Positions 36,547 through 59,830 of a stretch of 64,000 nucleotides of DNA are shown in pieces. The DNA lies in NCBI GenBank assembly GCA_964410325.1, contig CAYPFN010000005.1, forward strand, positions 9,087 to 73,086, written 5' to 3'. The translations under genes and the position numbers were made by a program. Under the pieces are notes generated by a model. The model saw nothing but the letters and a program-made list of their open reading frames with translations. It did no database searches and was not told the DNA's origin. Every line of letters starts with the position of its first letter. The stretch's first letter is position 1. This DNA comes from an uncultured Azospirillaceae bacterium (GTDB lineage: Bacteria > Pseudomonadota > Alphaproteobacteria > RF32 > CAG-239).

Positions 36547-37680
36547 TCATCGCAATTTCTTTTCCTGTAAACGCTGTGTCAGTCTGGCGGCAATCAACAT
36601 TAACCCCAACAGCAGAAAACCAGAAACTATCAGACCGATACCAGTTTGCATCAAACCTCCCCAAAAATCCATATATATCAGAAAAATCCGCAATGCCGCC
36701 AAGGCAAAAACCACATTAAGCAGGCGGCGGGAACGGTTATGATAAGCATAAATGCCTGTTAAGGCCAATAAGGCGAATGATAACAGAAAAGATAACGGCA
36801 ACAAGCTACCGAAAAATATAATCAGCATCAGAAAGGGAATATAATTTGGCCGTTTTCTGAGTTTTTCTATATAAAAAGACAACATCGTCATAGCGGCGGC
36901 AATCAGAACCAAACAACCCCCCAAAGCCCCTTCTATGCGATAAGGAACAAAAGACGTAACCAAGAAGTTTCTTTCAAAATCCATAAAGAAAATTGCTAAA
37001 ATGACATCAAAAACCAGCCAATATCTCAATGCCTTAACAAATCCCATGACATAATGCGGAAAGAACAGACGCAGTAGCTGATACAGCAAAAACCATACAA
37101 AAAGCCACAGAACCCCTACAGAATATTGCCAGCTTTCCGTAAACAAACGCAAAAACAGAGACAAACTCTGGCTTTGCTCAACATAATCTAACAAAGAAAT
37201 CCATAAAACCAGCAACACGACAAACGGCAAAACAATTTTTCGGGAAAAAAATGTCAGCGGAAATACCAAAATCGACCACAACAAAAAAGCCGACAAGCCA
37301 TCCAGTGGTAATTGATAAACCTGCACAATCAACCCGATGGAAGCCAACAACAGAATGGCAAATAATATACTCAGGCTTTCAAACCACAGATTCTTTCCCT
37401 GATTATAAAACATCCATGTTGCACCGCCAGCAGCCGCCAGCAAAATAAAATCACTAATCAGTTTAATAACCGACGGAATAGCGGTCCAATTGGCGGCAAT
37501 AATGGAAACAATGCCTAAGCCGATACAAACCAGTGCCAATGCCATAAATCCGTATAACAAATAAGGCTTGGCATGACGTTTTTCATAAGCAATAATCGCC
37601 CGTCCCTGTTGATAGGAAATCAACCCGATTTTCTGCCACCGTTTAATTTTTTTTGCCAAATTCATTAAAATTCTCCCCAA
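36547..37680 (-). CDS. polytopic membrane protein (DUF2157/DUF4401-like)
   Basis: 377 aa, ~9 TM helices, N-terminus KIKRWQKIGLISYQQGRAII. Confidence 0.45.
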   Translation of the reverse strand: MGRILMNLAKKIKRWQKIGLISYQQGRAIIAYEKRHAKPYLLYGFMALALVCIGLGIVSIIAANWTAIPSVIKLISDFILLAAAGGATWMFYNQGKNLWFESLSILFAILLLASIGLIVQVYQLPLDGLSAFLLWSILVFPLTFFSRKIVLPFVVLLVLWISLLDYVEQSQSLSLFLRLFTESWQYSVGVLWLFVWFLLYQLLRLFFPHYVMGFVKALRYWLVFDVILAIFFMDFERNFLVTSFVPYRIEGALGGCLVLIAAAMTMLSFYIEKLRKRPNYIPFLMLIIFFGSLLPLSFLLSFALLALTGIYAYHNRSRRLLNVVFALAALRIFLIYMDFWGGLMQTGIGLIVSGFLLLGLMLIAARLTQRLQEKKLR

Positions 37681-37981: not shown

Positions 37982-38008
37982 TTGCAAAAAAAAAAAACGG
38001 TTTATAAT
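37982..38008 (+). promoter_or_regulatory. sigma70-like promoter TTGCAA-(15 nt incl. A12 tract)-TATAAT upstream of cysteine-rich secreted protein gene
   Basis: TTGCAA 37982-37987, A12 37986-37997, TATAAT 38003-38008. Confidence 0.45.
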
Positions 38009-38196
38009 AAATCGTATAAGCCCTTTACGGAGGTTGTTTTATGGCTTGTTTGTTAATTTATACCCTTTTTCTTCCTGCCGCCTGCTTCCTCAAGGCGTTT
38101 CTTCCTCACATGCCTATATATTATATCGTCTCCCAGAAAGCTCCGCGGCAGGACCTTCCGTTTCTATTCTTCGTTCGTTATTTAGGAGTTTATATT

Positions 38197-39009
38197 ATGT
38201 TTATTAAATTTTCTTTCTTTGGCGTTTTAACGCTTTTATCCACTTCTTCTGCTTTGGCTCTGACTTGTGTCAACGACTACGGCGGTACTTCCTCTTGCGC
38301 TAGCAACACTACCGCCGCAGGAGATTGTGAAACTTTAGGTTACTCAACTTCCGATGTCGACAACTGCGAGCATTATCTCTATTGCCCCTTTGATACTTCC
38401 TACAAAAGGTGTGTTACTCAATCTGAAACATCTGAAACAGTAGAAGACTGTTCTGATTATACTTTAGAATCCTGCCCGACTGGCGCTATTTGTGATATCT
38501 GTTATCAAACTTCCGAATCAGGAGGCATTGCCTATTTTAAAAGATATTACAAAATTACCTCCTGTGAGGAGGGATATACAGAAACTACCAATCTCACTAC
38601 TGGCGCCATAACCTGTACAGAGAATGGGTTTAATCTGGGTGATCTTATAGAGGATGACATGAATTCTGAAGAAGAGTCTGATCCATGTGATGACAGGACA
38701 ACATATCCAATCAAATGTACAAACGGTAGCGAAACAACATGCTTCGAAGAAGACCCCTGTAAGGGTGTTAGTGGATGTGAATGGCACTGTGATACCATTG
38801 CCGGCAACGATAGCAGTAGTAGCGATAGCAGTAGCAGTGGTGGCGGTGGTAGTGCATGCGATGACGAATGCTCGCTAGGTTTGAACACATGTGACTGCTT
38901 ACTATGTAAGGATCCAAAGTATTGCGAAACTGATGAGGCGAAGCGGGCTTGCTGTGGTGAACTTGAAGAACGAGAAGACAGTATAAATAAAGAGGCAGAA
39001 AAACTTTAA
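38197..39009 (+). CDS. secreted cysteine-rich protein with Ser/Gly-rich linker
   Basis: ATG 38197 after AGGAG, signal peptide MFIKFSFFGVLTLLSTSSALA, ~36 Cys, SSSSDSSSSGGGGS run. Confidence 0.65.
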   Translation: MFIKFSFFGVLTLLSTSSALALTCVNDYGGTSSCASNTTAAGDCETLGYSTSDVDNCEHYLYCPFDTSYKRCVTQSETSETVEDCSDYTLESCPTGAICDICYQTSESGGIAYFKRYYKITSCEEGYTETTNLTTGAITCTENGFNLGDLIEDDMNSEEESDPCDDRTTYPIKCTNGSETTCFEEDPCKGVSGCEWHCDTIAGNDSSSSDSSSSGGGGSACDDECSLGLNTCDCLLCKDPKYCETDEAKRACCGELEEREDSINKEAEKL

Positions 39010-45886: not shown

Positions 45887-45951
45887 ACTTTCCCTCCTCC
45901 AAAAACAATTCCCAAAATACTGACGTACTGCTTACATTATAAGCAGATTTT

Positions 45952-46951
45952 TTATTTTGCCAACCGTTTATGCAAAATCTGCAGCAATTTAATTTTCTGC
46001 ATACGGAAAGCCCATAACGCCAAAATTTTTACCGGCCCCAACAGCCAAAACTTAAAATGCTTATCTTTCACAATCGGCTGCAGATAATCGTTAACCAGCG
46101 CATACAGCGCTCGTTCCGCCATTGGCTCGTACCGCTCAAGCACTTCTCCGACAAACATACCATAAGCATATTTGGTTGCCGTTTTATCAAGCAATGTTTG
46201 CACGAAAGGAAATCTTTGTCCCAAACCGACAATTTCCGCAAACAAATCCTGATATTCCGCAATCCGCTTTTCTGAAAGTTTTTGTAACGTCTGCGATGTT
46301 TCAAGTTGGCGATACGCCAAAAGTTCCTGCGTACAGACAACGGCCTTTCGACTGTTAAGCAAAACCTCAATATTAAACAACATATCGTTGATTGCCGGGA
46401 GCTTCAAAGAAAAGCGGATGTTTTTCAAAAGCTCTGCTTTATAAAGCTTCTGCCACATCAAGCTACCGATTTTTTTCTTGTGGCAAAATTTATCGATAAA
46501 CGGTCGTTCTGTTACAAATTTATATGTCGGCAACAGCTCATAATACTCCTTAAAGTTGTACCCCCCCCCGGCCGACAAATTTACAGTAGCTACAGCAGCT
46601 GATATCAGCATCCGTTTCCCGTAGATTATGATATAAAATTTCCAAATACTGCGGATGATAAATATCATCATGATCGCAAAAAGCAATATATTGCCCTTTC
46701 GCTATATCCAAAGCATAATTGCGGCTGGCGCTGCCACCTTGGTTTTCTTGCCGAAAAACTTTAAAACGCGCGTCATTGCCGGCAAATTTTTCCAATATTT
46801 CCTGCGACTTATCCGTTGAACCGTCATTAACGCAGATAACCTCAAAATCCGTAAAAGTCTGTTGTTGGATAGCAACTAAGGTTTCAGCCAAAAAATCTTG
46901 AGCATTATACACTGGAACAATTACCGAAATGCAAACCGTTTTATCCGACAT
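45952..46951 (-). pseudogene. GT2-family glycosyltransferase interrupted by a frameshift at a G9 tract (phase-variable candidate; in frame with 8 or 11 G)
   Basis: N-terminal ORF (MSDKTVCISVIVPVYN...DGSTD...) stops 12 codons after the tract. The C-terminal ORF 45952..46686 continues in the -1 frame. ATG 46951 overlaps the GT4 stop (TGATATG). Confidence 0.75.
46561..46569. repeat. C9 (G9 on coding strand) homopolymer inside GT2 gene
   Basis: Read directly: ...gttgta ccccccccc ggccgac... Confidence 0.95.
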
Positions 46952-46952
46952 A

Positions 46953-48011
46953 TCATCTTCCTCCGACAACCTGTTTAAGACATTTATCCAACGTTTCGGC
47001 AACATTCGTAAGCGAATAAACATTCCGGCATAGCTCATAACCTTTCTGAGCGGTTTTAGCTGCCTCGTCCGGATTATGCAAAATTTTTTCTAAGCAATTT
47101 GCCAAAGCATGATAATTTCCCTTTTCAAACAGATAACCCGCTTCCGGTTGTTTGGCAAAAATCTCGCTCGGCCCTTCCGCCGTAGAAGCGACAACCGGCA
47201 ATGAATATTGCATCGCCTCCAGCAAAACAATCCCAAACGGTTCATAAATCGAAGGCAAAACAAAAACATCTATTTTACCGTAAAAATCATCTTTATCAGA
47301 AATCCAACCCGGTAAATAAACTGCATCCTGCAAATTGTTTTCAGCAATCAGGCGACGGATTAATTCGTCTTCCTGTGGATATTGTGGCTGGCTACTCCCT
47401 GCCAGAACTGCCTTAAAAGGTATTTTATTTTGGCGCAAAAGCGCTAATGCCCGAATAAAATCAGGGAAACCCTTCATCGGGTCAAATCTGCCGATAGCGC
47501 CAATAACCGGCGGATTCCTAAATCCTGAAAAAGGTTTATACGCTTTTTCATATGTCAACATATTCGGAATCACAAAAATCTTTTCTGATTCCAGCCCCTT
47601 GTCAACGAACAAACGTTTTTGATATTCTGTAATGGAAAAAACCGCATCGCATTTATCAATCAGCTTAAATCTCGGATTATGCGCTACGGCAATAATTTTA
47701 ACACCCAAAAGCCGCGCAACCGTTTTGATAATCGGAATAGATTTTTTAGTATGGCAGATGATAAGGTCCGGATTAAATTTTTTAAGTTTAAAATAAAGTG
47801 GCAGAATTAAAAAATAATTATACCGGCTGAACGGCAGAAAAACCGTATCTATGCCGGATCTTTCCAAATCTTTTCTAAGTTTTGTTTTGGTGGAAACCAC
47901 AGCCAAAACCTGATGACCTTTAAGCCGCAGAGCCGCATTGTAATCCAGAAATGCCTGTTCGATGCCACCTAAAATTTTACTGGTCATAACATTGACAATT
48001 TTCATGCGCAT
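46953..48011 (-). CDS. GT4-family glycosyltransferase
   Basis: 352 aa, C-terminal EPFGIVLLEAM motif, coupled to neighbours on both sides. Confidence 0.85.
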   Translation of the reverse strand: MRMKIVNVMTSKILGGIEQAFLDYNAALRLKGHQVLAVVSTKTKLRKDLERSGIDTVFLPFSRYNYFLILPLYFKLKKFNPDLIICHTKKSIPIIKTVARLLGVKIIAVAHNPRFKLIDKCDAVFSITEYQKRLFVDKGLESEKIFVIPNMLTYEKAYKPFSGFRNPPVIGAIGRFDPMKGFPDFIRALALLRQNKIPFKAVLAGSSQPQYPQEDELIRRLIAENNLQDAVYLPGWISDKDDFYGKIDVFVLPSIYEPFGIVLLEAMQYSLPVVASTAEGPSEIFAKQPEAGYLFEKGNYHALANCLEKILHNPDEAAKTAQKGYELCRNVYSLTNVAETLDKCLKQVVGGR

Positions 48012-48014
48012 TTC

Positions 48015-48927
48015 TTAAGCCACCTTCAGCGTTCCATCTAAAAATTTTTCCAAAAACGTTCCGGCGACATTTTTATTTTTATCATATTTATAACTTAATT
48101 TATGAATCTTGGTTTCTTGTTGCAGCTTATTCCACAACCTGTCATCATACGGCGTAAAAAAGTTATGCTCTAAACCATAACAAATATCATCATAATAAAC
48201 AGGTACTTTATCCCAAAGCGCTTTACTTACCGCATCCTGCTCAATCATCAAATCAAAAAACAGATGATACAAAAAATAATTCAGCATATGGTTTTCATGG
48301 CGCCAATATTCAAACATCAGCCGCCGCATATTGCTTATTAGCTGATCTCCTCTTTGGGCTTTCAAAAACCAATTGTTAGATTTAAGATGTGAGCGGGAAT
48401 GAAAAGCAAAAAAATCCGCGCTGGTAATATCTGCTGGCAGAGCCGCCGTAAGAAAAACCGTCGCGTCAATCCAAATGCCACCGTTCTGGCTTAAAAGCGC
48501 CAGCCTGAGCAAATCGGAAAACTCCGTGTTCGTAATATAGCCTTTTCGCCATTTTTCATAAATATATTCTGGAATATCCGCGTATTGGGAAATATTTTCG
48601 TTATCAATAACTGTTAAGGTATACCCCCCCCCGGGTATTATCGCGTATACTTTCCAAACATTTCTTCACCACTGCCGGCGCTTTATCTTCTCCCTGTAGC
48701 CAACAGAGCCATATCCGATCGCCACCGCACTTCGCCACTGGCATTTCCATATTATTGCGCAAAGCATACAAATAACGCTGGAGATATTTCTTTTCCGCCA
48801 CGGTCGTCCATGCCTTAAGCTGCTTTTTGCGTTCCTTTTTATCGGCATAAAGCAATGCCACCGCTAATCTGAAAAATGTTTTCTTCACCCATACATACCA
48901 ATACGCAACCTTTTGCATCTCTGTCAT
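48015..48927 (-). pseudogene. DXD-motif glycosyltransferase (Caps_synth/Gly_transf_sug-like) interrupted by a frameshift at a G9 tract (phase-variable candidate)
   Basis: N-terminal ORF (start ATG 48927) ends ...DNTRGGVYLNSY* after the tract. With 8 G it reads through into ORF 48015..48512 (...GGYTLTVIDNENISQYADIPEYIYEKWRKGYITNTEFSDLLRLALLSQNGGIWIDATVF...). Confidence 0.75.
48624..48632. repeat. C9 (G9 on coding strand) homopolymer inside first glycosyltransferase of the operon
   Basis: Read directly: ...ggtata ccccccccc gggtatt... Confidence 0.95.
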
Positions 48928-49100: not shown

Positions 49101-49766
49101 TCATATTTGAGCGTTGATAATAATAAAAATTTTATACCAAACCGGACTACTTAAAACAATATGTTTTCCCAATTTTCCCCAACTATCATAAAGCCACACA
49201 CCGTTAAAAAAACAATAAACGTTACGTGCGAAACCCCGAACAGTCGGGCAATTCGCACCTTGAGAACTTTTTGTTCCTGCATTTGGTAAATTCATTCCCG
49301 CCCCAGATTTTTTTATTGATGATTTTTGTTCTTTTAATCCAGCCAAGCGTTTTGCCTTCGGCTTTAAGGCGGGCCAAAGCCTCTTTGGTGCACTACTAAA
49401 TAAGATTGCGCTCAATTTCGTCCGACAAGCCGAAAACCCAAGCCAAACTTTACTTCGAATACCCGTTCCCAGCCTGTAGTTATCTTTAATCGTCCAGACC
49501 TGCGTTTCCTTTTGCCTGCAGATATTCAACTGCAAAAGATTGCCCCCAATCCTCGAGAGCGACGGACAAAGCAGAACATCCACCTTTTTCAATTCCTTAA
49601 GAAGCTTGCCCAACTTTCGTTCTTCAAAGTTCTTCGCACCGCTGATAACCTCATACACCCAGCCGTCAATCAGCAACCCATTATACTCTGAAAAAGCATT
49701 GATTTCAAATTATTAATTTTCCAGTGTCTGCTTATCGGTGCTTACTCGTATATATCCATAAATCAT
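49101..49766 (-). pseudogene. small serine recombinase (invertase/resolvase family) pseudogene
   Basis: ATG 49766 gives MIYGYIRVSTDKQTLEN then TAA. The rest continues in another frame (…ERKLGKLLKELKK…LSRIGGNLL…YRLG…), paralogous to 52804..53394. Confidence 0.7.
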
Positions 49767-49887: not shown

Positions 49888-50607
49888 ATGAAAAAACTGA
49901 TAATTTACATTTTTTCTGCCATGATTTTAATCAGCGGCGTCAACGCTCAAAGCAATAGCCTGGATGCTGTCCTTTCCGACATTCCGCAAAATCCAGAAAG
50001 TGCTTTGGTCTTTATCCACGGACTTGGTCAAGACGGCATCGCCATGCAAAAAATTGCCGCAAACTTCAAAGATCGGCTTCCAGATACTGCCCTCTTCTAT
50101 CCGACGGCACCAGACAAGGCACCACGTCAAGGCTATCAATGGTTTGTTATTCCAGCCTTTGGGGCTAAAATGGCAGATATTGATATTTATGAAGAAATGT
50201 TGGATGATGCCGTTTCAAATGTTGATGTTTTGCATGAGCTGATTGACAATATTCACAACGAAATGGCTATCCCTTATGAAAACATCCATGTCGCTGGTTT
50301 TTCGCAAGGCGGTTTAATGACCGTTTTAACGGCCTTGACTTATCCGCACCAGCTCGGACGCTCCGTTTCGTTTTCCGGCGTACCGCTTATTCTTACGGAA
50401 GATTTTGACACAGACATTTTGGTTTCCGAACCGGAAATTTTATTAATCCAAGGCGATAACGACAGCATTATTCCGCCAGACAGCCTGAAATTGACTCAAG
50501 AAGCTTTAGAAAGTTTAGGCATCATACCGCAAACGGTCATAATCAACCGCATGCGCCACGAAATTTCCCCCACCGCGCAGCAAAAGATGCTGGAATTTTT
50601 GCAATAA
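49888..50607 (+). CDS. secreted phospholipase/carboxylesterase-family alpha/beta hydrolase
   Basis: Signal peptide, FIHGLGQDG, GFSQGG nucleophile elbow. Confidence 0.8.
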   Translation: MKKLIIYIFSAMILISGVNAQSNSLDAVLSDIPQNPESALVFIHGLGQDGIAMQKIAANFKDRLPDTALFYPTAPDKAPRQGYQWFVIPAFGAKMADIDIYEEMLDDAVSNVDVLHELIDNIHNEMAIPYENIHVAGFSQGGLMTVLTALTYPHQLGRSVSFSGVPLILTEDFDTDILVSEPEILLIQGDNDSIIPPDSLKLTQEALESLGIIPQTVIINRMRHEISPTAQQKMLEFLQ

Positions 50608-50906
50608 CTTGATGTTATGATATTTTTCAAGATTCCACGCCACCTTATCATTGAAACGCTGTCGGGTTACATAATCCAGACTGGGCTGTCTATTTGGAAA
50701 AGAACGGTAAACAGAAACTTTATTTTGTACCTGAAACCTGAACTCCAAAGGCTCTGATTTTATTTTATGGTTTGCAACCAGAAGAAGCCCTGAAGCTTCA
50801 TTGCGGATATAAACATTTAGGGCTCTTGATAATATAATAATTAAACGATATAAAATTTCCCAAAGATATACTCTAAGGTAAGCTAACTTTCTCATCGTAT
50901 TTATCC

Positions 50907-51890
50907 TTAACCTTTTTTAGAGTAAGATAGAATTGGCAATATACCCAACAGATAAATTTTCACTTTATCTTTCCTTTTTTTGATTTTTATCAGTGGAATA
51001 CAATGAAATAATTTTACGCAATACATAACTTTAGGTGTTTTTGATATATTTAAAATTTCATTCAAAATCAGTTCTAATTGTAATTCATGAAAAAATGGAG
51101 TTGTTTTTGCATAATTCCAATATAAATTTTCACCTAAAACATCTTTTTTTACCCACGGACGAATACCATTTTTTCCCGTATAATGTAAAATAAAACATTG
51201 TTTTGATGTTTGTATAAAATTTTTTAAATCCAAGTATAACGGTGTCAAATCTACCACAAAGTTATAGCAATCTGGTAAAATATCGTATTTTTTATTGAAT
51301 ACAACATTAAGTATATCTTGATCAGGCATTGATAATTTTTGTTTCATTTCTAACGTTTTTTTTATTAAAACATCCATGACATTATTATTTCGCCAGAAAT
51401 CACAATCTATCAATAACAGTCCACTATTAAAATAAAGATGAGAAGCATCTATTTCTAAATTTTTCTTATATTTTTTATACACATTTATGTTATATTTTTC
51501 ATCTAAATAAGGAACGGCACCTAATCCATTATCTATATTTATGTTAAAAATTTCTAAAATATCACCACACACAATCATATCTGAATCAATGTATAATGCT
51601 TTTTTTAATTCGGGTTTTAATTGAGGAATTAAATATCGAGAATACATGTTCAGTGAAAAATGTTCTAAATTTGGAAATTGTTCAAATATAGACATTGGTA
51701 TTTCAATAAATTCAATTGTATGGAGAGTTTTGGTTAGCATCTGTTCTAGCTTGTTTTTAGAAATGCTGCTAATACCACCATCTAATATGTAAAAATTTAT
51801 ATTGCTTTTTGTATTAGATATAATTGAAGCTATCGTTACGGTGGCATATTTAATGTATTGTTCATCTGAAGCTAAAAAAACAGGTATCAT
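50907..51890 (-). CDS. GT8-family glycosyltransferase (LPS alpha-1,3-galactosyl/glucosyltransferase-like, RfaJ/LgtC type)
   Basis: 327 aa, IPVFLASDEQYIKYATVTIASI, DSDMIV DXD motif; the most AT-rich gene in the window. Confidence 0.85.
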   Translation of the reverse strand: MIPVFLASDEQYIKYATVTIASIISNTKSNINFYILDGGISSISKNKLEQMLTKTLHTIEFIEIPMSIFEQFPNLEHFSLNMYSRYLIPQLKPELKKALYIDSDMIVCGDILEIFNINIDNGLGAVPYLDEKYNINVYKKYKKNLEIDASHLYFNSGLLLIDCDFWRNNNVMDVLIKKTLEMKQKLSMPDQDILNVVFNKKYDILPDCYNFVVDLTPLYLDLKNFIQTSKQCFILHYTGKNGIRPWVKKDVLGENLYWNYAKTTPFFHELQLELILNEILNISKTPKVMYCVKLFHCIPLIKIKKRKDKVKIYLLGILPILSYSKKG

Positions 51891-52422
51891 CTCATTAATC
51901 CATTTCTCATTTCAATTTTAAATTTAATAGAAAAATTCCATAGTTGTAGAATGTACTTGGTATATATCTGCTCATTCAAAACTATTTTCATACTTTTAAG
52001 TCTTATTCCTAAGAAATCCCAACGATTATTCCAAAAAGTAAATTCCATAAAATCAACGTTTGTGCATAATCGAACGTTTATGCATAAAGTTATTAAGACA
52101 TAACCAATTATATCAGTGAAAGCCTTTGTTTTCTTAGTGTTTAAATAAAAAATTTATCTTGTAATTAAAAATAATTTATGTAAGATGAAATACATAAAAT
52201 AAACGTTCCAATTTGATTAATTACGCGACAATATACAATCATATAGTCTTAAATGAATAAGAGATAAGGTGTAATTACCCAGAAGACATAATTGCCATAA
52301 AAAAGGAAAAAATATGGCAAAAGAAAATTCATTGGTAGCAATACCCCCAATAGATATGTTGCAAAACGCACTTATTTTTCTCAAAACAACTTGGATTTTT
52401 TAAAGAAAATGAAAAAAAGTTC

Positions 52423-52451
52423 TTGACCTTATAAAAAAATACCTATATATA
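52423..52451 (+). promoter_or_regulatory. sigma70-like promoter of tRNA-Glu
   Basis: TTGACC-17 nt-TATATA, ~20 nt upstream of the tRNA 5' end. Confidence 0.5.
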
Positions 52452-52470
52452 TGCCTTGTCTTAAATATAT

Positions 52471-52545
52471 GGTCCCATCGTCTAATGGTTAGGACATCAC
52501 CCTTTCACGGTGGTAATATGGGTTCGAATCCCGTTGGGATCACCA
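52471..52545 (+). tRNA. tRNA-Glu (anticodon UUC)
   Basis: Folded by hand: acceptor GGTCCCA/TGGGATC, anticodon loop CTTTCAC, T-loop TTCGAAT, 3' ACCA; terminator hairpin 52553..52586. Confidence 0.9.
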
Positions 52546-52803
52546 ATTCAAACGGCAGTCATGAAAATGGCTGCCTTTTCTTTTATCTCCATGCCTTATA
52601 AATTAGAATCTCGTTAGGTTTTGGAATTGTAGATAAGGTATATATAAAAGTTTGGCCGTTATGATATTTTTTTATCTTAAACTTACGCACAGATTGAGTT
52701 TTTACCACTCATTTATGAATGATATTTGATTTTAGCGTGTTTTTCTATTAGTTTTTTTCTGTTCTTATAAATAATTTTAGAAACATATTTATAAGGATAA
52801 AAA

Positions 52804-53394
52804 ATGATATATGGATATATAAGAGTCAGCACTGACCATCAAAACATTGCAAACCAACATCACGAAATTGAAATTTTTTCTCAAAAGCAAAATCTTATAA
52901 TCGATAAATGGATTGAGGAAATTATTTCTTCAAGAAAGCCTTTACAAGAAAGAAAACTTGGAAAACTCTTAAAAAAATTAAAAAAAGGAGATATTCTCAT
53001 TGCAACAGAGCTTTCTAGATTAGGACGTAATCTACTAGAAGTGATGGGAATATTACAAAAATGTCTAGAAAAAGATTGTCAGATTTGGACTTTGAAAGAA
53101 AATTATCGATTAGGGGCAGATATCCAATCTAAAGTTTTAGCTTTTGCTTTCAGTTTAGCAAGTGAAATTGAGAGACAATTAATTTCTGAACGAACCAAAT
53201 TATCTTTGCAAAGGCTAAAAGATGAAGGCAAACACCTTGGTAGACCATATGGTTCATCTTACCAAAAATTACAAAAACAACATGATAGAATAAAAAAGTT
53301 AACTGAAAAAGGTTTATCTAAAGCTGAAATTTCCAGAAGTTTAAATTGTTCTTGGTTAACGATTCATCGCTATATCCAAAGAAATTTCAGTTAA
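52804..53394 (+). CDS. small serine recombinase (DNA invertase/resolvase family, Hin/Gin size)
   Basis: 196 aa, YIRVSTDHQ catalytic-serine motif, LSRLGRN, C-terminal HTH. Confidence 0.85.
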   Translation: MIYGYIRVSTDHQNIANQHHEIEIFSQKQNLIIDKWIEEIISSRKPLQERKLGKLLKKLKKGDILIATELSRLGRNLLEVMGILQKCLEKDCQIWTLKENYRLGADIQSKVLAFAFSLASEIERQLISERTKLSLQRLKDEGKHLGRPYGSSYQKLQKQHDRIKKLTEKGLSKAEISRSLNCSWLTIHRYIQRNFS

Positions 53395-53580
53395 TATTAC
53401 AACATCTATTATGCTTAGACTTCTTTTCAGCAATGGCAGGAAGTCTTTTTTTTATTTTTTTACACTTTTAAAATCTCATTTTTTAGTCTGTGGATTTGAT
53501 TTTTTTAATTACTTTTATTAAATCCGGCTATCCACAGTTCGTTTATTGAGTTGTATGATATATATAAAAAAATCCAACCA

Positions 53581-54648
53581 TTATTGCTCAACATTGATGG
53601 CTCGCACGATTTCGCTGGCATGCACCAGTTTAATATTTTTGGAACCTAAAGTTTTAAGCCAGTCTTTTAAAGCTAGATAGGTTTGGCTTTTAGGATGGCA
53701 AATAGCTATGGCAAAACCTTTTTTGGCGGCAATTTTTTCAGCCGCTTCCAACTGTTTCATAATATAAGCATAATCGTTTTCATTATCCAAGAAAACATCT
53801 CGCCCGGCAAAATCAACACCATCTTCCTCAGCCAGCTCTCTGCCTTTAGAAGAAGCCGTCGTTTTTGAATCCAGAAAAAACATCTGCCGATCTTTTAAGA
53901 TATTCATAACCCCGCCCAATTTTTCCTTATCTTCAGTAAATTTACTGCCCATATGATTATTGATTCCACTGACGGCAATACCATCAAACTTGGCCAGCAT
54001 TTGCCCAAACATATTGCGAATGGTTTCTACATCCATATCGGTCATCAAAGTATCTGGCGCCAAACTTGCCGGAACTTTCGGTTCCATCGGCGCATGAATC
54101 ATAATTTCATGACCGGCAGCCTCAGCCGCAGCCGCCAACTGCGCCAGATTTTTTCCATATGTCAGAAAAGATGAAGTCAACGGTGCTTCAAGCGATATTA
54201 TATCTTTGGTGCGCGTCTGATTAATTCCCATATCATCAATCACCACCGCCAACAACGGTGTTTCAACCATAATCCTATCCAAAATAAGCCGCTTACGAGC
54301 CTCTTCTGTTTTATCCGTGGCATTCATAACAACCACTTCTTCTATCGGTTCAGCCACATCTGCCTGTTCAGTCGCCTCATCGGGCTCATTTAAAACCTCA
54401 GGATCAGCCGTCACATATTCATGGTGCATTATAAAATCGCCAATTATATCAGCTTCGGAATATTCTTCCGAAAATTCCTCATCAGACATAACCACCACCG
54501 CCAAAGGCAAGCTCTTTTCAGACGACTGGAACTTTAAATATCCAACAAAGATTCCCCCCAGAAAAAACGCTAACAGTAGCAAAGCCAAAAGCACCGCAGA
54601 TAAATACGGTGCCATAATTTTCCACAAGCTTTGCAATTTATCAGTCAC
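53581..54648 (-). CDS. divergent polysaccharide deacetylase (YibQ family)
   Basis: 355 aa, N-terminal TM, LAVVIDDMGIN...HAPMEP core. Confidence 0.7.
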   Translation of the reverse strand: MTDKLQSLWKIMAPYLSAVLLALLLLAFFLGGIFVGYLKFQSSEKSLPLAVVVMSDEEFSEEYSEADIIGDFIMHHEYVTADPEVLNEPDEATEQADVAEPIEEVVVMNATDKTEEARKRLILDRIMVETPLLAVVIDDMGINQTRTKDIISLEAPLTSSFLTYGKNLAQLAAAAEAAGHEIMIHAPMEPKVPASLAPDTLMTDMDVETIRNMFGQMLAKFDGIAVSGINNHMGSKFTEDKEKLGGVMNILKDRQMFFLDSKTTASSKGRELAEEDGVDFAGRDVFLDNENDYAYIMKQLEAAEKIAAKKGFAIAICHPKSQTYLALKDWLKTLGSKNIKLVHASEIVRAINVEQ

Positions 54649-54654
54649 AATCGC

Positions 54655-56127
54655 TTAATCCCTCTTGCGCAATGTCGGAAAGGCTATAACATCACGGATT
54701 GTTTCTGCCCCGGTCAAGAAAATAGCCAAACGATCAATCCCCATGCCCATACCTCCTGACGGCGGAAAACCATTTTCCAGAGCCGTTACAAAATCTTCAT
54801 CCAACATTTGCGCCTCATCGTCCCCTGCTTCGCGAGCGGCAACCTGGGCCTCAAAGCGTTCCCGCTGTTCCAGCGGATTGGAAAGCTCAGAATAAGCGCA
54901 CCCCATTTCCATACCCGCAACATACGCGTCAAAATGTTCTACCAAACGCGGATTAGTACGATGTGTTTTTGCCAAAGGCGAAACATCACGTGGCATATCC
55001 ATCACCAAAATCGGTTCAATCAAATTAGCTTCCACTTTAGCATCAAAAACTTCTTGAACAACCTTGCCCCAGGAAGTGCATTCAGATGCATCAACCCCGG
55101 CTGATTTTGCCATAGCCTGAGCTTCTTCCAAAGTTTCAGCCTGCATCAAATCGATTCCGGCATATTCTTTAACTAAATCAACAATAGATTTACGCGCGAA
55201 AGGTTTACCCAAATCAATCCGATGACCATTAAACTCTACTTCAGTCGTCCCCAAAACGCTTTTCGCAACATACGCCAGCAAATCCGGAATAAGTTCGGCC
55301 ATTGTGTTATAATCGGCATACGCCTGATATGCCTCCAAAGCCGTAAACTCCGGATTATGGCTTTTATCAATGCCTTCATTACGGAAATTGCGACCGATTT
55401 CAAAAACCCGGTCAAAACCACCAACCACTAAACGTTTTAAATAAAGTTCTGGTGCAATACGTAGATATAAATCCATATCCAAAGCGTTATGATGCGTCAC
55501 AAACGGCTTAGCATTGGCGCCACCCATAATCGGATGTAGCATCGGCGTTTCCACTTCCAAAAAGCCGTGCTCTTCAAAATAACGGCGGATTGCTGAAGTA
55601 ATTTGACAGCGTTTTTCAAAGATTTTACGACTGTCATCATTCATAATAAAATCAACATACCGTTGACGGTAACGCGCCTCCACATCAGTCAGACCATGGA
55701 ATTTTTCTGGCAGCGGCTGCAAAGCTTTGGCAATAATGTCAAATTTTTCCGCAGCAACTGAAAGCTCGCCTCTGGGCGTTCGGCGGATATAGCCCGTTAC
55801 CCCGATAATATCGCCGACATCAAGATATTTCAACCGCTCGATTTCTTCTTCCGACAAATGATTTTTATGACAAAAGACCTGAATTTTACCGGATTTATCT
55901 TTCAAATCAATAAACATGCCACTGTTGCGTACGGCCATAGCTCGACCGGCAATCGTTACACGATCTTCCGTATCAACGCCGTTTTCCAGGTTTTTGTATT
56001 TTTCCTGCAAATCCGCTGCATAAGCATTTTGTTCAAATTTATAAGGATACGGATTATAGCCTTTTTCCTGCAAAGCCTTTAGCTTTGCCAATCTTGATTC
56101 GCGATGAACATTGGTTTCTGTTGACAT
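54655..56127 (-). CDS. lysS: lysyl-tRNA synthetase, class II
   Basis: 490 aa, OB anticodon-binding domain plus class II motifs 1-3. Confidence 0.95.
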
Positions 56128-58200: not shown

Positions 58201-59670
58201 TTACATTTCCCCTGTTTCGCTTGTTCCGGAAACCGCCGCAATTTCTTTTTCCTGATTAGCCTCAGCCTTAACTTTAGCCACAACCTTTTTAAACGCGGCC
58301 AGTTTATTTTCCGTCAGATTTTCTCCAGTTGCCGCCTTAACTTTCAAGGGATCAACTTTTTTACCGTTACGCACAACTTCGAAATGAAGATGAGGGCCTG
58401 TTGACTGACCTGTACTGCCGACATAGCCAATAACCTGCCCTTGCTTGACCCGTACTCCCGGACGGATACCTTTGGCAAAGGAATGCATATGGGCATACCC
58501 TGTTGAATATTCCGCATTATGTCGAATTTGAATGTATTTACCATATCCTCCATACCATTTTGCCATAGTCACGACTCCGTCACCGCTGGCATAAATTTGT
58601 GTACCAGACGGCGCAGCATAATCCACGCCGTCATGATTTTTATACACCTTCAAAATCGGATGAAAGCGGCGACCAAACCGTGATGAAATGCGGGCTTTTT
58701 TAAATTCCATCGGTTTTCGGTCAAGATTCTTTTTCAGTGCCAGTCCTTTTTCATCATAATAATCCACATGTCCGGAATTATCTTCGAAACGGTAAAGTTC
58801 ATATTTTTCTTTACCCAGCTGCAAAGCAGCAAAGATAATATTTCCGCTCTTAACCACGCTGCCGTCCTGAGCCAGCCGACGTTCATAACGAACTTCAAAC
58901 TGGTCTCCGGAACGAACATCGCGGCGAAAATCAACGCTGAAAGAAAATATATCAATAAAATTGCCAATAACATTAGACGGAACGCCTGCATCGCCCATGG
59001 CTGTCGACAAATTGCCGTTAATCACGCCTCTGATTGTTTTGACATCATCAATCAGTTGATCCTGCTCCTTGCGAGAAACATACTCACCTTCATTATTCTT
59101 TTCCACGATATAACGCGTGCCACTAACCGGTTCAATCATAATCCGGTCAACAGAAACGACATCTTCGTTTTCTCCCGCAAAAGAAGAAGTAATGTAAAGT
59201 GTTTGTCCAACTTTAATATAACGGGCGTCAAAAACATTTTTAAATGCCACATAAATGTTACTTGCCTCGGTGTAACTCAGCCCTTTATTGGTTAAAATAC
59301 CAATAAAACTGTCCCCTTTGGCGACTTTAACCACATCCTCATTAAACGGTTTTTCGGCAACCACATCCGCCGTTTGAACATTTAGCGAATCTTCAACATT
59401 TTCTTCCGAAAAATTTTCTGAATTAAAAGCAACTACCGTATCTTCTCCATAAAACGCCAGATTCTCATCTGCCACGGCTGAAACATATTCCGGAAATTCC
59501 TCCGGAGCCATTTCCGATAGTTCGATATTTTTAGGTATTGAAGCCTCAACATTATTATTATTACGCACCGAAACAATCAAAGCGCAAGTTACCACAAAAG
59601 CATAAAAAAACAACCATGTGCGTTGACGCGACATCCGCCGACTTTGAATTCTGATTTTGTTAAAATCCAT
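58201..59670 (-). CDS. M23-family metallopeptidase (LytM domain)
   Basis: 489 aa, N-terminal TM, C-terminal GSTGQSTGPHLHFEV. Confidence 0.85.
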   Translation of the reverse strand: MDFNKIRIQSRRMSRQRTWLFFYAFVVTCALIVSVRNNNNVEASIPKNIELSEMAPEEFPEYVSAVADENLAFYGEDTVVAFNSENFSEENVEDSLNVQTADVVAEKPFNEDVVKVAKGDSFIGILTNKGLSYTEASNIYVAFKNVFDARYIKVGQTLYITSSFAGENEDVVSVDRIMIEPVSGTRYIVEKNNEGEYVSRKEQDQLIDDVKTIRGVINGNLSTAMGDAGVPSNVIGNFIDIFSFSVDFRRDVRSGDQFEVRYERRLAQDGSVVKSGNIIFAALQLGKEKYELYRFEDNSGHVDYYDEKGLALKKNLDRKPMEFKKARISSRFGRRFHPILKVYKNHDGVDYAAPSGTQIYASGDGVVTMAKWYGGYGKYIQIRHNAEYSTGYAHMHSFAKGIRPGVRVKQGQVIGYVGSTGQSTGPHLHFEVVRNGKKVDPLKVKAATGENLTENKLAAFKKVVAKVKAEANQEKEIAAVSGTSETGEM

Positions 59671-59830
59671 TATAAGAAACCCTGTTATTCAAATCTCATA
59701 ATACAATGCAATGAAGCTATTTTTTTTTCAAGCAGATAATAAAGTTATACAGCACTAAACATATTTTATAAGTGTTTACAAAAAGTTACCTTTAACAATA
59801 AAAAATATATATAAAGATAAAAAAAAGACT

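Follow-up and report, generated by a model that had tools for sequence, protein, structure and literature searches.

A candidate poly-G phase-variation switch in a family 2 glycosyltransferase gene of an uncultured, gut-associated alphaproteobacterium

Introduction

Switches based on poly-G tracts in glycosyltransferase genes are textbook features of a few mucosal pathogens. Database bias has been suggested as a possible cause of this narrow known range (PMC11868660). The present analysis concerns a 64-kb stretch of DNA (contig CAYPFN010000005.1, hereafter the window) from an uncultured Azospirillaceae bacterium, in which a run of nine guanines on the coding strand (tract 1) splits a gene for a family 2 glycosyltransferase (the GT2 gene) and probably acts as a translational ON/OFF switch. 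The organism is represented by metagenomes only, and its lineage is gut- or rumen-associated. Its assignment to the Alphaproteobacteria follows the names given by submitters, the nearest relatives of its GT2 and lysyl-tRNA synthetase (LysRS) all being labeled 'MAG: Alphaproteobacteria bacterium' (MAG, metagenome-assembled genome).

The closest functional parallel, as judged by analogy, is wlaN of Campylobacter jejuni. The wlaN (Cj1139c) and cgtB genes encode β-1,3-galactosyltransferases of lipooligosaccharide (LOS) and contain intragenic poly-G tracts (PMC7142995). As predicted for GT2, wlaN is ON with 8 G, OFF with 9 G and ON with 11 G, and its tract lies at nt 331 of 912 (36%), compared with nt 383 of 999 (38% of the gene length) in GT2 (PMC7142995). 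Tract lengths in wlaN and cgtB vary among isolates on near-identical flanks, as they do here (PMC7142995). Both organisms are also gut-associated and AT-rich. C. jejuni is a member of the Campylobacterota rather than the Alphaproteobacteria, however, and the likeness is one of function and of relative tract position. The substrate and phenotype of WlaN are known (a GM1 mimic), whereas GT2 is known from sequence alone.

In Neisseria, lgtA, lgtC, lgtD, lgtG and the pgl pilin glycosyltransferase genes contain coding poly-G/C tracts, usually of 9-20 residues, that generate combinatorial glycoforms (PMC5953494). A two-tract operon such as the one described below would act alike, with tracts in several glycosyltransferases. 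Neisseria differs in being a betaproteobacterium of the human nasopharynx with usually longer tracts, and its switching has been shown experimentally, whereas here it is read from sequence.

The direct precedent for this class of locus in alphaproteobacteria is badE of Bartonella. The A9 and G9 simple-sequence repeats (SSRs) of Bartonella krasnovii badE gained and lost bases in an evolution experiment, and the ON/OFF state of badE varies among wild Bartonella isolates (PMC11466379). The original prediction for this locus, which regarded poly-G tracts as not normally associated with alphaproteobacteria, was therefore overstated on this point. Like the GT2 gene, badE is an alphaproteobacterial gene with an intragenic G9 in which the gain or loss of one G shifts the frame. 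It encodes a trimeric autotransporter adhesin of a cultured, blood-borne pathogen, whereas the gene described here encodes a glycosyltransferase of an uncultured organism. Literature searches found no SSR switch reported either in these gut lineages or in a glycosyltransferase of any alphaproteobacterium.

Results

A nine-guanine tract splits the GT2 gene

Tract 1 appears as CCCCCCCCC on the plus strand at 46561-46569 and is read as G9 on the minus, coding strand, in the context ...TGT AAA TTT GTC GGC CGG GGG GGG GTA CAA CTT TAA. The N-terminal frame of GT2 begins with an ATG at 46951, preceded by GGAGGAAG; it is listed as open reading frame (ORF) 46550..47038 and ends with a TAA stop at 46552-46550. 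The C-terminal frame corresponds to ORF 45952..46686 and is open from 46686 to 45952. The G9 allele encounters a stop three codons past the tract (V-Q-L-stop) and encodes a 133-residue product. Deletion of one G (G8) gives a protein of 332 residues that is colinear with its homologs, and G11 gives one of 333 residues. A change of a single repeat unit toggles GT2 between the full-length 332-residue and the truncated 133-residue form. The original prediction of a GT2 gene split by G9 is borne out by the sequence and the ORFs, in both coordinates and frame arithmetic. Its expectation that 8 or 11 G would fuse the halves into a GT2 of about 332 residues agrees with the two lengths above and with a PF00535 match, but it placed the truncation about 12 codons past the tract instead of three.

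The run is unlikely to have arisen by chance composition. G9 reaches the poly-G/C threshold of at least nine used by PhasomeIt (PMC5953494). The window has a GC content of 40%, and its plus strand contains eight C5, two C6, no C7, no C8 and two C9 runs; the longest plus-strand G run is of five. Under a first-order Markov model of the 64 kb, 0.16 C runs and 0.02 G runs of at least nine are expected, about 0.18 together, whereas two are observed. Both C9 runs reside in glycosyltransferase genes of one 3-kb operon, 2 kb apart, with G on the coding strand; the second is designated tract 2. The codons are also unusual. GGG is the rarest glycine codon (12% of Gly codons), the probability of CGG-GGG-GGG given R-G-G is 0.003 from codon usage, and among the Gly-Gly dipeptides of 42 long ORFs, GGGGGG is used at tract 1 alone. 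For a locked-ON GT2 construct, the tract would take the form of a GGAGGCGG-type recoding.

The full-length product is a predicted GT-A-fold enzyme

The G8 fusion matches the Pfam family Glycos_transf_2 (PF00535) with an E-value of 5.8e-37 and 127.6 bits, against a cut-off of 23.3. It aligns without gaps across the junction with the homologs P0001 and P0002, through ...(R/P)GGYNFKE..., the junction reading CKFVGRGGYNFKEY in the G8 fusion and CKFVGPGGYNFKEC and LKFALRGGYNFKER in the closest homologs. A D93-H-D-D96 motif is conserved in the family alignment, and the best sequence matches of GT2 in the PDB are GT2 enzymes (5hea GalT1, E=5e-29). The AlphaFold2 (AF2) model of the ON protein has a mean predicted local distance difference test score of 90.7 and a predicted template-modeling score of 0.89, with an N-terminal half of alternating β and α elements. 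The ON protein is thus, by the PF00535 match, the DxD motif and the AF2 model, a predicted family 2 glycosyltransferase of GT-A fold.

In the model, tract residues 128-130 lie in a coil (residues 127-142) that follows a strand (residues 117-126) and forms the internal stretch of lowest confidence. These residues also belong to the block of the family alignment that varies most, so the extra glycine of G11 should be tolerated. The 133-residue OFF product retains the DHDD motif and loses all elements past residue 133.

Tract length varies within species and among sister lineages

The tract 1 site was compared in 20 assemblies, all of which are metagenome assembly consensus sequences; some of the ENA and Logan assemblies may share runs, so the number of independent samples is possibly smaller. 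The comparison covers the window species, two sister lineages (A and B) and rumen homologs (Table 1). OFF alleles account for 11 of the 20 assemblies. Lineage A, named 'uncultured Alphaproteobacteria bacterium BRZ_LA bin12', is the closest syntenic genome. A scan of GTDB genomes with the GT2 alignment recovered lineage A and four rumen relatives, the latter without the tract, but not the genome of the window itself; more distant homologs come from goat and cattle rumen MAGs. A degenerate pattern spanning tract 1 gave 0 matches in JGI metagenomes and added no alleles.

Table 1. Alleles at the tract 1 site and their predicted phase
Group	Allele	Phase	Assemblies
Window species (99.6-99.8% nt identity)	G9	OFF	window, L008, L009
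Window species	G8	ON	L007
Lineage A	G8	ON	L001-L004
Lineage A	G9	OFF	L091-L095
Lineage A	A+G8	OFF	L006, L090
Lineage B	CCC+G7	ON	L005
Lineage B	G8	ON	L097
Lineage B	G9	OFF	L096
Rumen homologs (51-54% identity)	no tract		L011-L014

Within the window species, the ON allele was recovered as predicted. Protein P0123 (332 residues, Logan SRR7039261), the product of L007, is identical to the predicted G8 fusion, and the window allele matches it at 100% identity in either frame. L007 (G8) shows 0 mismatches to L008 and L009 (G9) in 930 flanking nt, and the tract is the sole indel that distinguishes L007 from the window over 2.9 kb. In lineage A, L001 (G8) and L092 (G9) likewise show 0 mismatches in 930 flanking nt. 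G9 also occurs in lineage A on two other haplotypes, 2-3 single-nucleotide polymorphisms apart, and the length change therefore arose more than once. Ungapped comparison of the flanks is invalid for L006, L090 and L005, where a register shift produces 262-301 spurious mismatches, and blastn was used for these.

The A+G8 allele reads CCTCC-A-G8 where the others read CCTCC-G8/G9, and is present in two independent assemblies (L006:1263-1270 and L090:6260-6267). It looks like a G9 whose first G has turned to A. The strain is 97.6% identical to L001; its frame is OFF, and the ON lengths would move to G7 or G10.

The tract occupies the same codons in all three lineages. GT2 shares 68-71% amino acid identity between the lineages, and the three glycosyltransferases of the operon (45952-48918) are about 70% identical to their sister-lineage counterparts, whereas LysRS (window 54655-56127) is 95-96% identical among the window species and lineages A and B. 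Conservation at the same codons, in rare glycine codons of a diverged gene, supports the view that the tract has been kept by selection.

Alternative explanations of the length variants

The first alternative is ordinary strain polymorphism or recurrent gene loss, in which the homopolymer would be a mere mutational hotspot and the G9 alleles dead-end nulls that mark stable differences between strains. It would account for variation that is seen between samples and not within them, for the abundance of OFF alleles, for the apparently fixed A+G8 allele and for tract 2, which is OFF in every case. Against this reading, the OFF alleles are without secondary lesions and the C-terminal frame of the window gene is identical to that of the ON allele. 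The tract is the sole lesion and the ON allele co-circulates, while a decayed neighboring gene, described below, has multiple lesions; the GT2 gene is for these reasons not a plain pseudogene. ON and OFF alleles moreover share identical 930-nt flanks in two species, the tract persists in rare codons in three lineages despite about 30% amino acid divergence of the gene, and a change from G8 to G9 is reversible by nature. Strain polymorphism is hence considered unlikely.

It is also very improbable that the tract really has 8 G, with an intact gene, and that G9 is a homopolymer miscall in the consensus. Homopolymers are prone to error, the source is a metagenome-assembled contig, related contigs are of low coverage, and tracts 1 and 2 of the window show an identical +1 offset. 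On the other hand, two additional independent assemblies of this species also have G9, and tract 2 is G9 in L008 as well. Logan assemblies yield G8 as well (L007), and the source of the G9 contig L092 also yields G8 (L001, L002). The other 40 long ORFs of the window are intact, with no other homopolymer frameshifts, and the sole other broken gene has stops and a deletion rather than homopolymer slips.

Hardly credible is a G9 allele that is still expressed, the frame being partly restored by RNA-polymerase slippage or ribosomal -1/+2 frameshifting so that the tract tunes the level of product: slippery homopolymers can support transcriptional slippage, but these are mainly A/T runs of at least nine, and in E. 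coli G/C runs are poor substrates relative to A/T runs. Most genotypically OFF wlaN/cgtB strains of C. jejuni did make sialylated LOS, possibly from mixed populations (PMC7142995), but such rescue leaves the circulation of both G8 and G9 alleles unexplained, and no stimulatory structure or slippery heptamer was noticed, although no search aimed at these was made.

A contingency-locus model for tract 1

The reading preferred here is that G9 is a hypermutable SSR and a translational phase-variation switch, that is, a contingency locus, within the GT2 gene. We consider this probable on the strength of the sequence comparisons; the length polymorphism and the ON allele P0123 lend support to the slipped-strand switch originally proposed, with 8 G and 11 G as ON and 9 G as OFF. 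Slipped-strand mispairing in replication would gain or lose one G:C pair. With 8 or 11 G, codons 1-127 would be in frame with the rest of the gene and a GT-A-fold enzyme would be made (332 residues at G8). With 9 G, the ribosome would stop three codons on and release a 133-residue stub that keeps the nucleotide-sugar half, with DHDD, and lacks the acceptor half. The window strain would be in the OFF phase at tract 1, and OFF at tract 2 as well. Because the operon ends with GT2, its OFF state is not expected to affect the other genes. We infer that switching in a clonal population is frequent and reversible and is favored by phage or host-immune pressure, and that the product modifies a surface glycan, be it lipopolysaccharide (LPS)/LOS, a capsule or a glycoprotein. 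The choice of LPS/LOS as the target in the original prediction is an assumption.

Several points weigh against a switch of this kind. The allelic differences are seen between samples only, at the level of assembly consensus, and coverage is low in several assemblies (2.7-9.4x from contig names). The length of tract 2 corresponds to OFF in both assemblies that contain it (the window and L008), and sister-lineage orthologs of the gene that carries tract 2 are without a tract at that site. In mismatch-repair-proficient bacteria a tract of G8-9 may switch slowly; C. jejuni is not known to have mismatch repair of the MutS/MutL type.

The mechanism itself is not new. What is new is the taxon, the evidence for ON and OFF states at the metagenome level, and the link to an Mpi-like invertase. 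Commensal Alphaproteobacteria would join the known hosts of the mechanism, and the locus indicates that ON/OFF polymorphism of this kind can be detected from public assemblies alone. It is also a warning to annotators that a MAG gene listed as one of these 'frameshifted pseudogenes' is probably functional and merely in its OFF phase.

The operon contains a second candidate switch

GT2 belongs to a set of three tightly packed minus-strand genes, which encode a Caps_synth-family transferase, a GT4-type transferase and GT2 (Table 2). The Caps_synth gene ends with a TAA at 48015-48017 and is followed by the GT4 ATG at 48011; the GT4 gene ends with a TGA at 46953-46955, and the GT2 ATG follows one base after. 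GT4 matches Glycos_transf_1 (PF00534, E=1e-36) and Glyco_transf_4 (PF13439) and is kept in syntenic loci. The hairpin directly past the GT2 stop likely marks the end of the operon, as its position and terminator-like sequence suggest.

Table 2. Features of the glycosyltransferase operon and its surroundings in the window
Feature	Position	Strand	Basis or remark
Tract 1, G9 homopolymer, candidate switch within GT2 gene	46561..46569	-	Window sequence
GT2 gene, last of operon, OFF phase	45952..46951	-	ORFs; PF00535 match of G8 fusion
Hairpin CTGCTTATAATGTAAGCAG directly past GT2 stop	45928..45946	-	Terminator-like site, scored on + strand
GT4-type glycosyltransferase, middle operon gene, intact	46953..48011	-	352-aa ORF
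Caps_synth-family (PF05704) glycosyltransferase, first operon gene, split by tract 2	48015..48918	-	Both halves match PF05704
Tract 2, second G9	48624..48632	-	Window sequence; splits Caps_synth gene, +1, OFF
Decayed Mpi-family serine invertase (resolvase) gene, directly upstream of operon	49166..49765 (approximate)	-	Sequence; tblastn vs intact ortholog
GT8 LPS α-galactosyltransferase-like gene	50907-51890	-	In low-GC island
tRNA-Glu(ttc)	52471-52545	+	In low-GC island
Intact Mpi-like invertase	52804-53394	+	In low-GC island, 264.7 bits

Tract 2 divides the Caps_synth gene into an N-terminal part (48918..48604) and a C-terminal part that extends to 48015. The two halves cover positions 11-76 and 116-277 of the PF05704 profile. 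The tract reads ACC CGG GGG GGG GTA TAC CTT AAC AGT TAT TGA in the window and, with 8 G, would read ...DNTRGGYTLTVIDNENISQYADIPEYIYEKW... instead. The resulting G8 fusion of 300 residues is 71-72% identical to the intact orthologs of L001 and L005, and its alignment with them contains a single one-residue gap, which is located at tract 2. Both tracts have the context CC-G9-TA and encode R-G-G-Y if ON, and in the window each exceeds the ON length by one G, the sole lesion of either gene. Tract 2 is also G9 in the same-species contig L008. In a collection of 15 billion proteins, the exact G8 fusion of Caps_synth, its ON allele, was not found, and both Caps_synth fragments are singletons. The operon thus holds two candidate switches, both OFF in the window; tract 2, which the original prediction did not mention, is probably the second.

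Two tracts in a three-gene operon would in principle allow up to four glycan states. The OFF form of tract 2 would leave about 590 nt untranslated, and polarity could lower expression of the genes downstream. The adjacent genes include no flippase, polymerase or export genes, which suggests that the operon enzymes modify a glycan assembled at another locus, in the manner of LOS outer-core extension.

Gene order is conserved between lineages: an abhydrolase, the invertase, Caps_synth, GT4 and GT2, then flavodoxins, MerR, a BOF protein and a response regulator. Some lineages have two further genes between GT2 and the flavodoxins. In lineage A and in L097, part of lineage B, the operon contains an extra gene plus a Fer4/FrhB/pyruvyl-transferase gene; the extra gene encodes a 382-residue glycosyltransferase in lineage A and a 359-residue ORF without a Pfam match in L097. 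Divergence together with variable gene content, as at this locus, is what diversifying selection or allele exchange usually leaves behind in surface-glycan loci.

An Mpi-like invertase gene adjoins the operon

In all three lineages the operon is directly preceded by a serine invertase gene assigned to the Mpi family. The window copy is a pseudogene, with two tandem stops past codon 17, a 4-codon deletion, a later frameshift and altered motif residues. The gene is intact (199 residues) in the sister lineages, at L001:3301-3900, L005:992-1591, L097:2329-2928 and L090:3177-3776. The L001 protein scores 316 bits on NCBIfam NF009949, against a cut-off of 272; the intact paralog in the window (52804-53394, plus strand) falls slightly under that cut-off.

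Bacteroides fragilis Mpi provides a parallel in that an Mpi-family serine invertase stands beside a surface-glycan operon, and the second copy in the window stands beside a GT8 gene. Mpi flips invertible polysaccharide promoters, however, whereas here neither flanking inverted repeats nor alternative orientations were found and the copy beside the operon is a pseudogene in the window. An invertible promoter run by the adjacent invertase was considered and is unsupported, given the lack of conserved inverted repeats and of alternative orientations. Inverted repeats were sought near the invertase genes of the window, L001 and L005, also by a targeted search, and yielded weak AT-rich pairs only, none conserved between lineages. 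The B. fragilis Mpi inverted-repeat motif (ARACGTWCGT) has 9 matches against 9.4 expected, which is the chance level. L090 and L001 are colinear, as are L097 and L005, with no inversion; at two assemblies per lineage, this is a weak negative.

A layered form of glycan phase variation, with two independent poly-G switches in one operon and an additional level of control by the Mpi-family invertase, is a doubtful extension of the contingency-locus model. The invertase would then act on a yet-unrecognized site, or in trans on glycan loci that include the GT8 island at 50.6-53.6 kb. If true, one commensal lineage would unite the SSR strategy known from Campylobacter and Neisseria with the invertase-based strategy of Bacteroides.

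The GT8 gene, the tRNA-Glu gene and the intact invertase occupy an island of low GC content at 50600-53600 (25-30%, compared with 40-45% in the flanks). About 900 bp of non-coding sequence separates the GT8 gene from the island invertase. One possibility is that the island is an acquired cassette for glycan modification; another is that it is an inverton region.

Other repeat tracts in the window

An A12 tract on the plus strand (37986-37997) makes up the greater part of the 15-nt spacer in a sigma-70-like site. The site consists of TTGCAA, 10 A followed by CGGTT, and TATAAT, and the tract is some 45 nt upstream of ORF 38041-39009. Tracts placed in promoter spacers are a classical means of varying the level of transcription. 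The ORF is rich in Cys and Ser, has no Pfam match and contains an internal signal-peptide-like segment; exact-protein look-ups gave no other copies of it. An A9 on the minus strand (T9 on the plus strand) at 59720-59728 is located about 50 nt upstream of an M23 peptidase gene (58201-59670, minus strand), between this gene and that for tRNA-Asp. The two C6 runs of the window are at 36917 and 54554.

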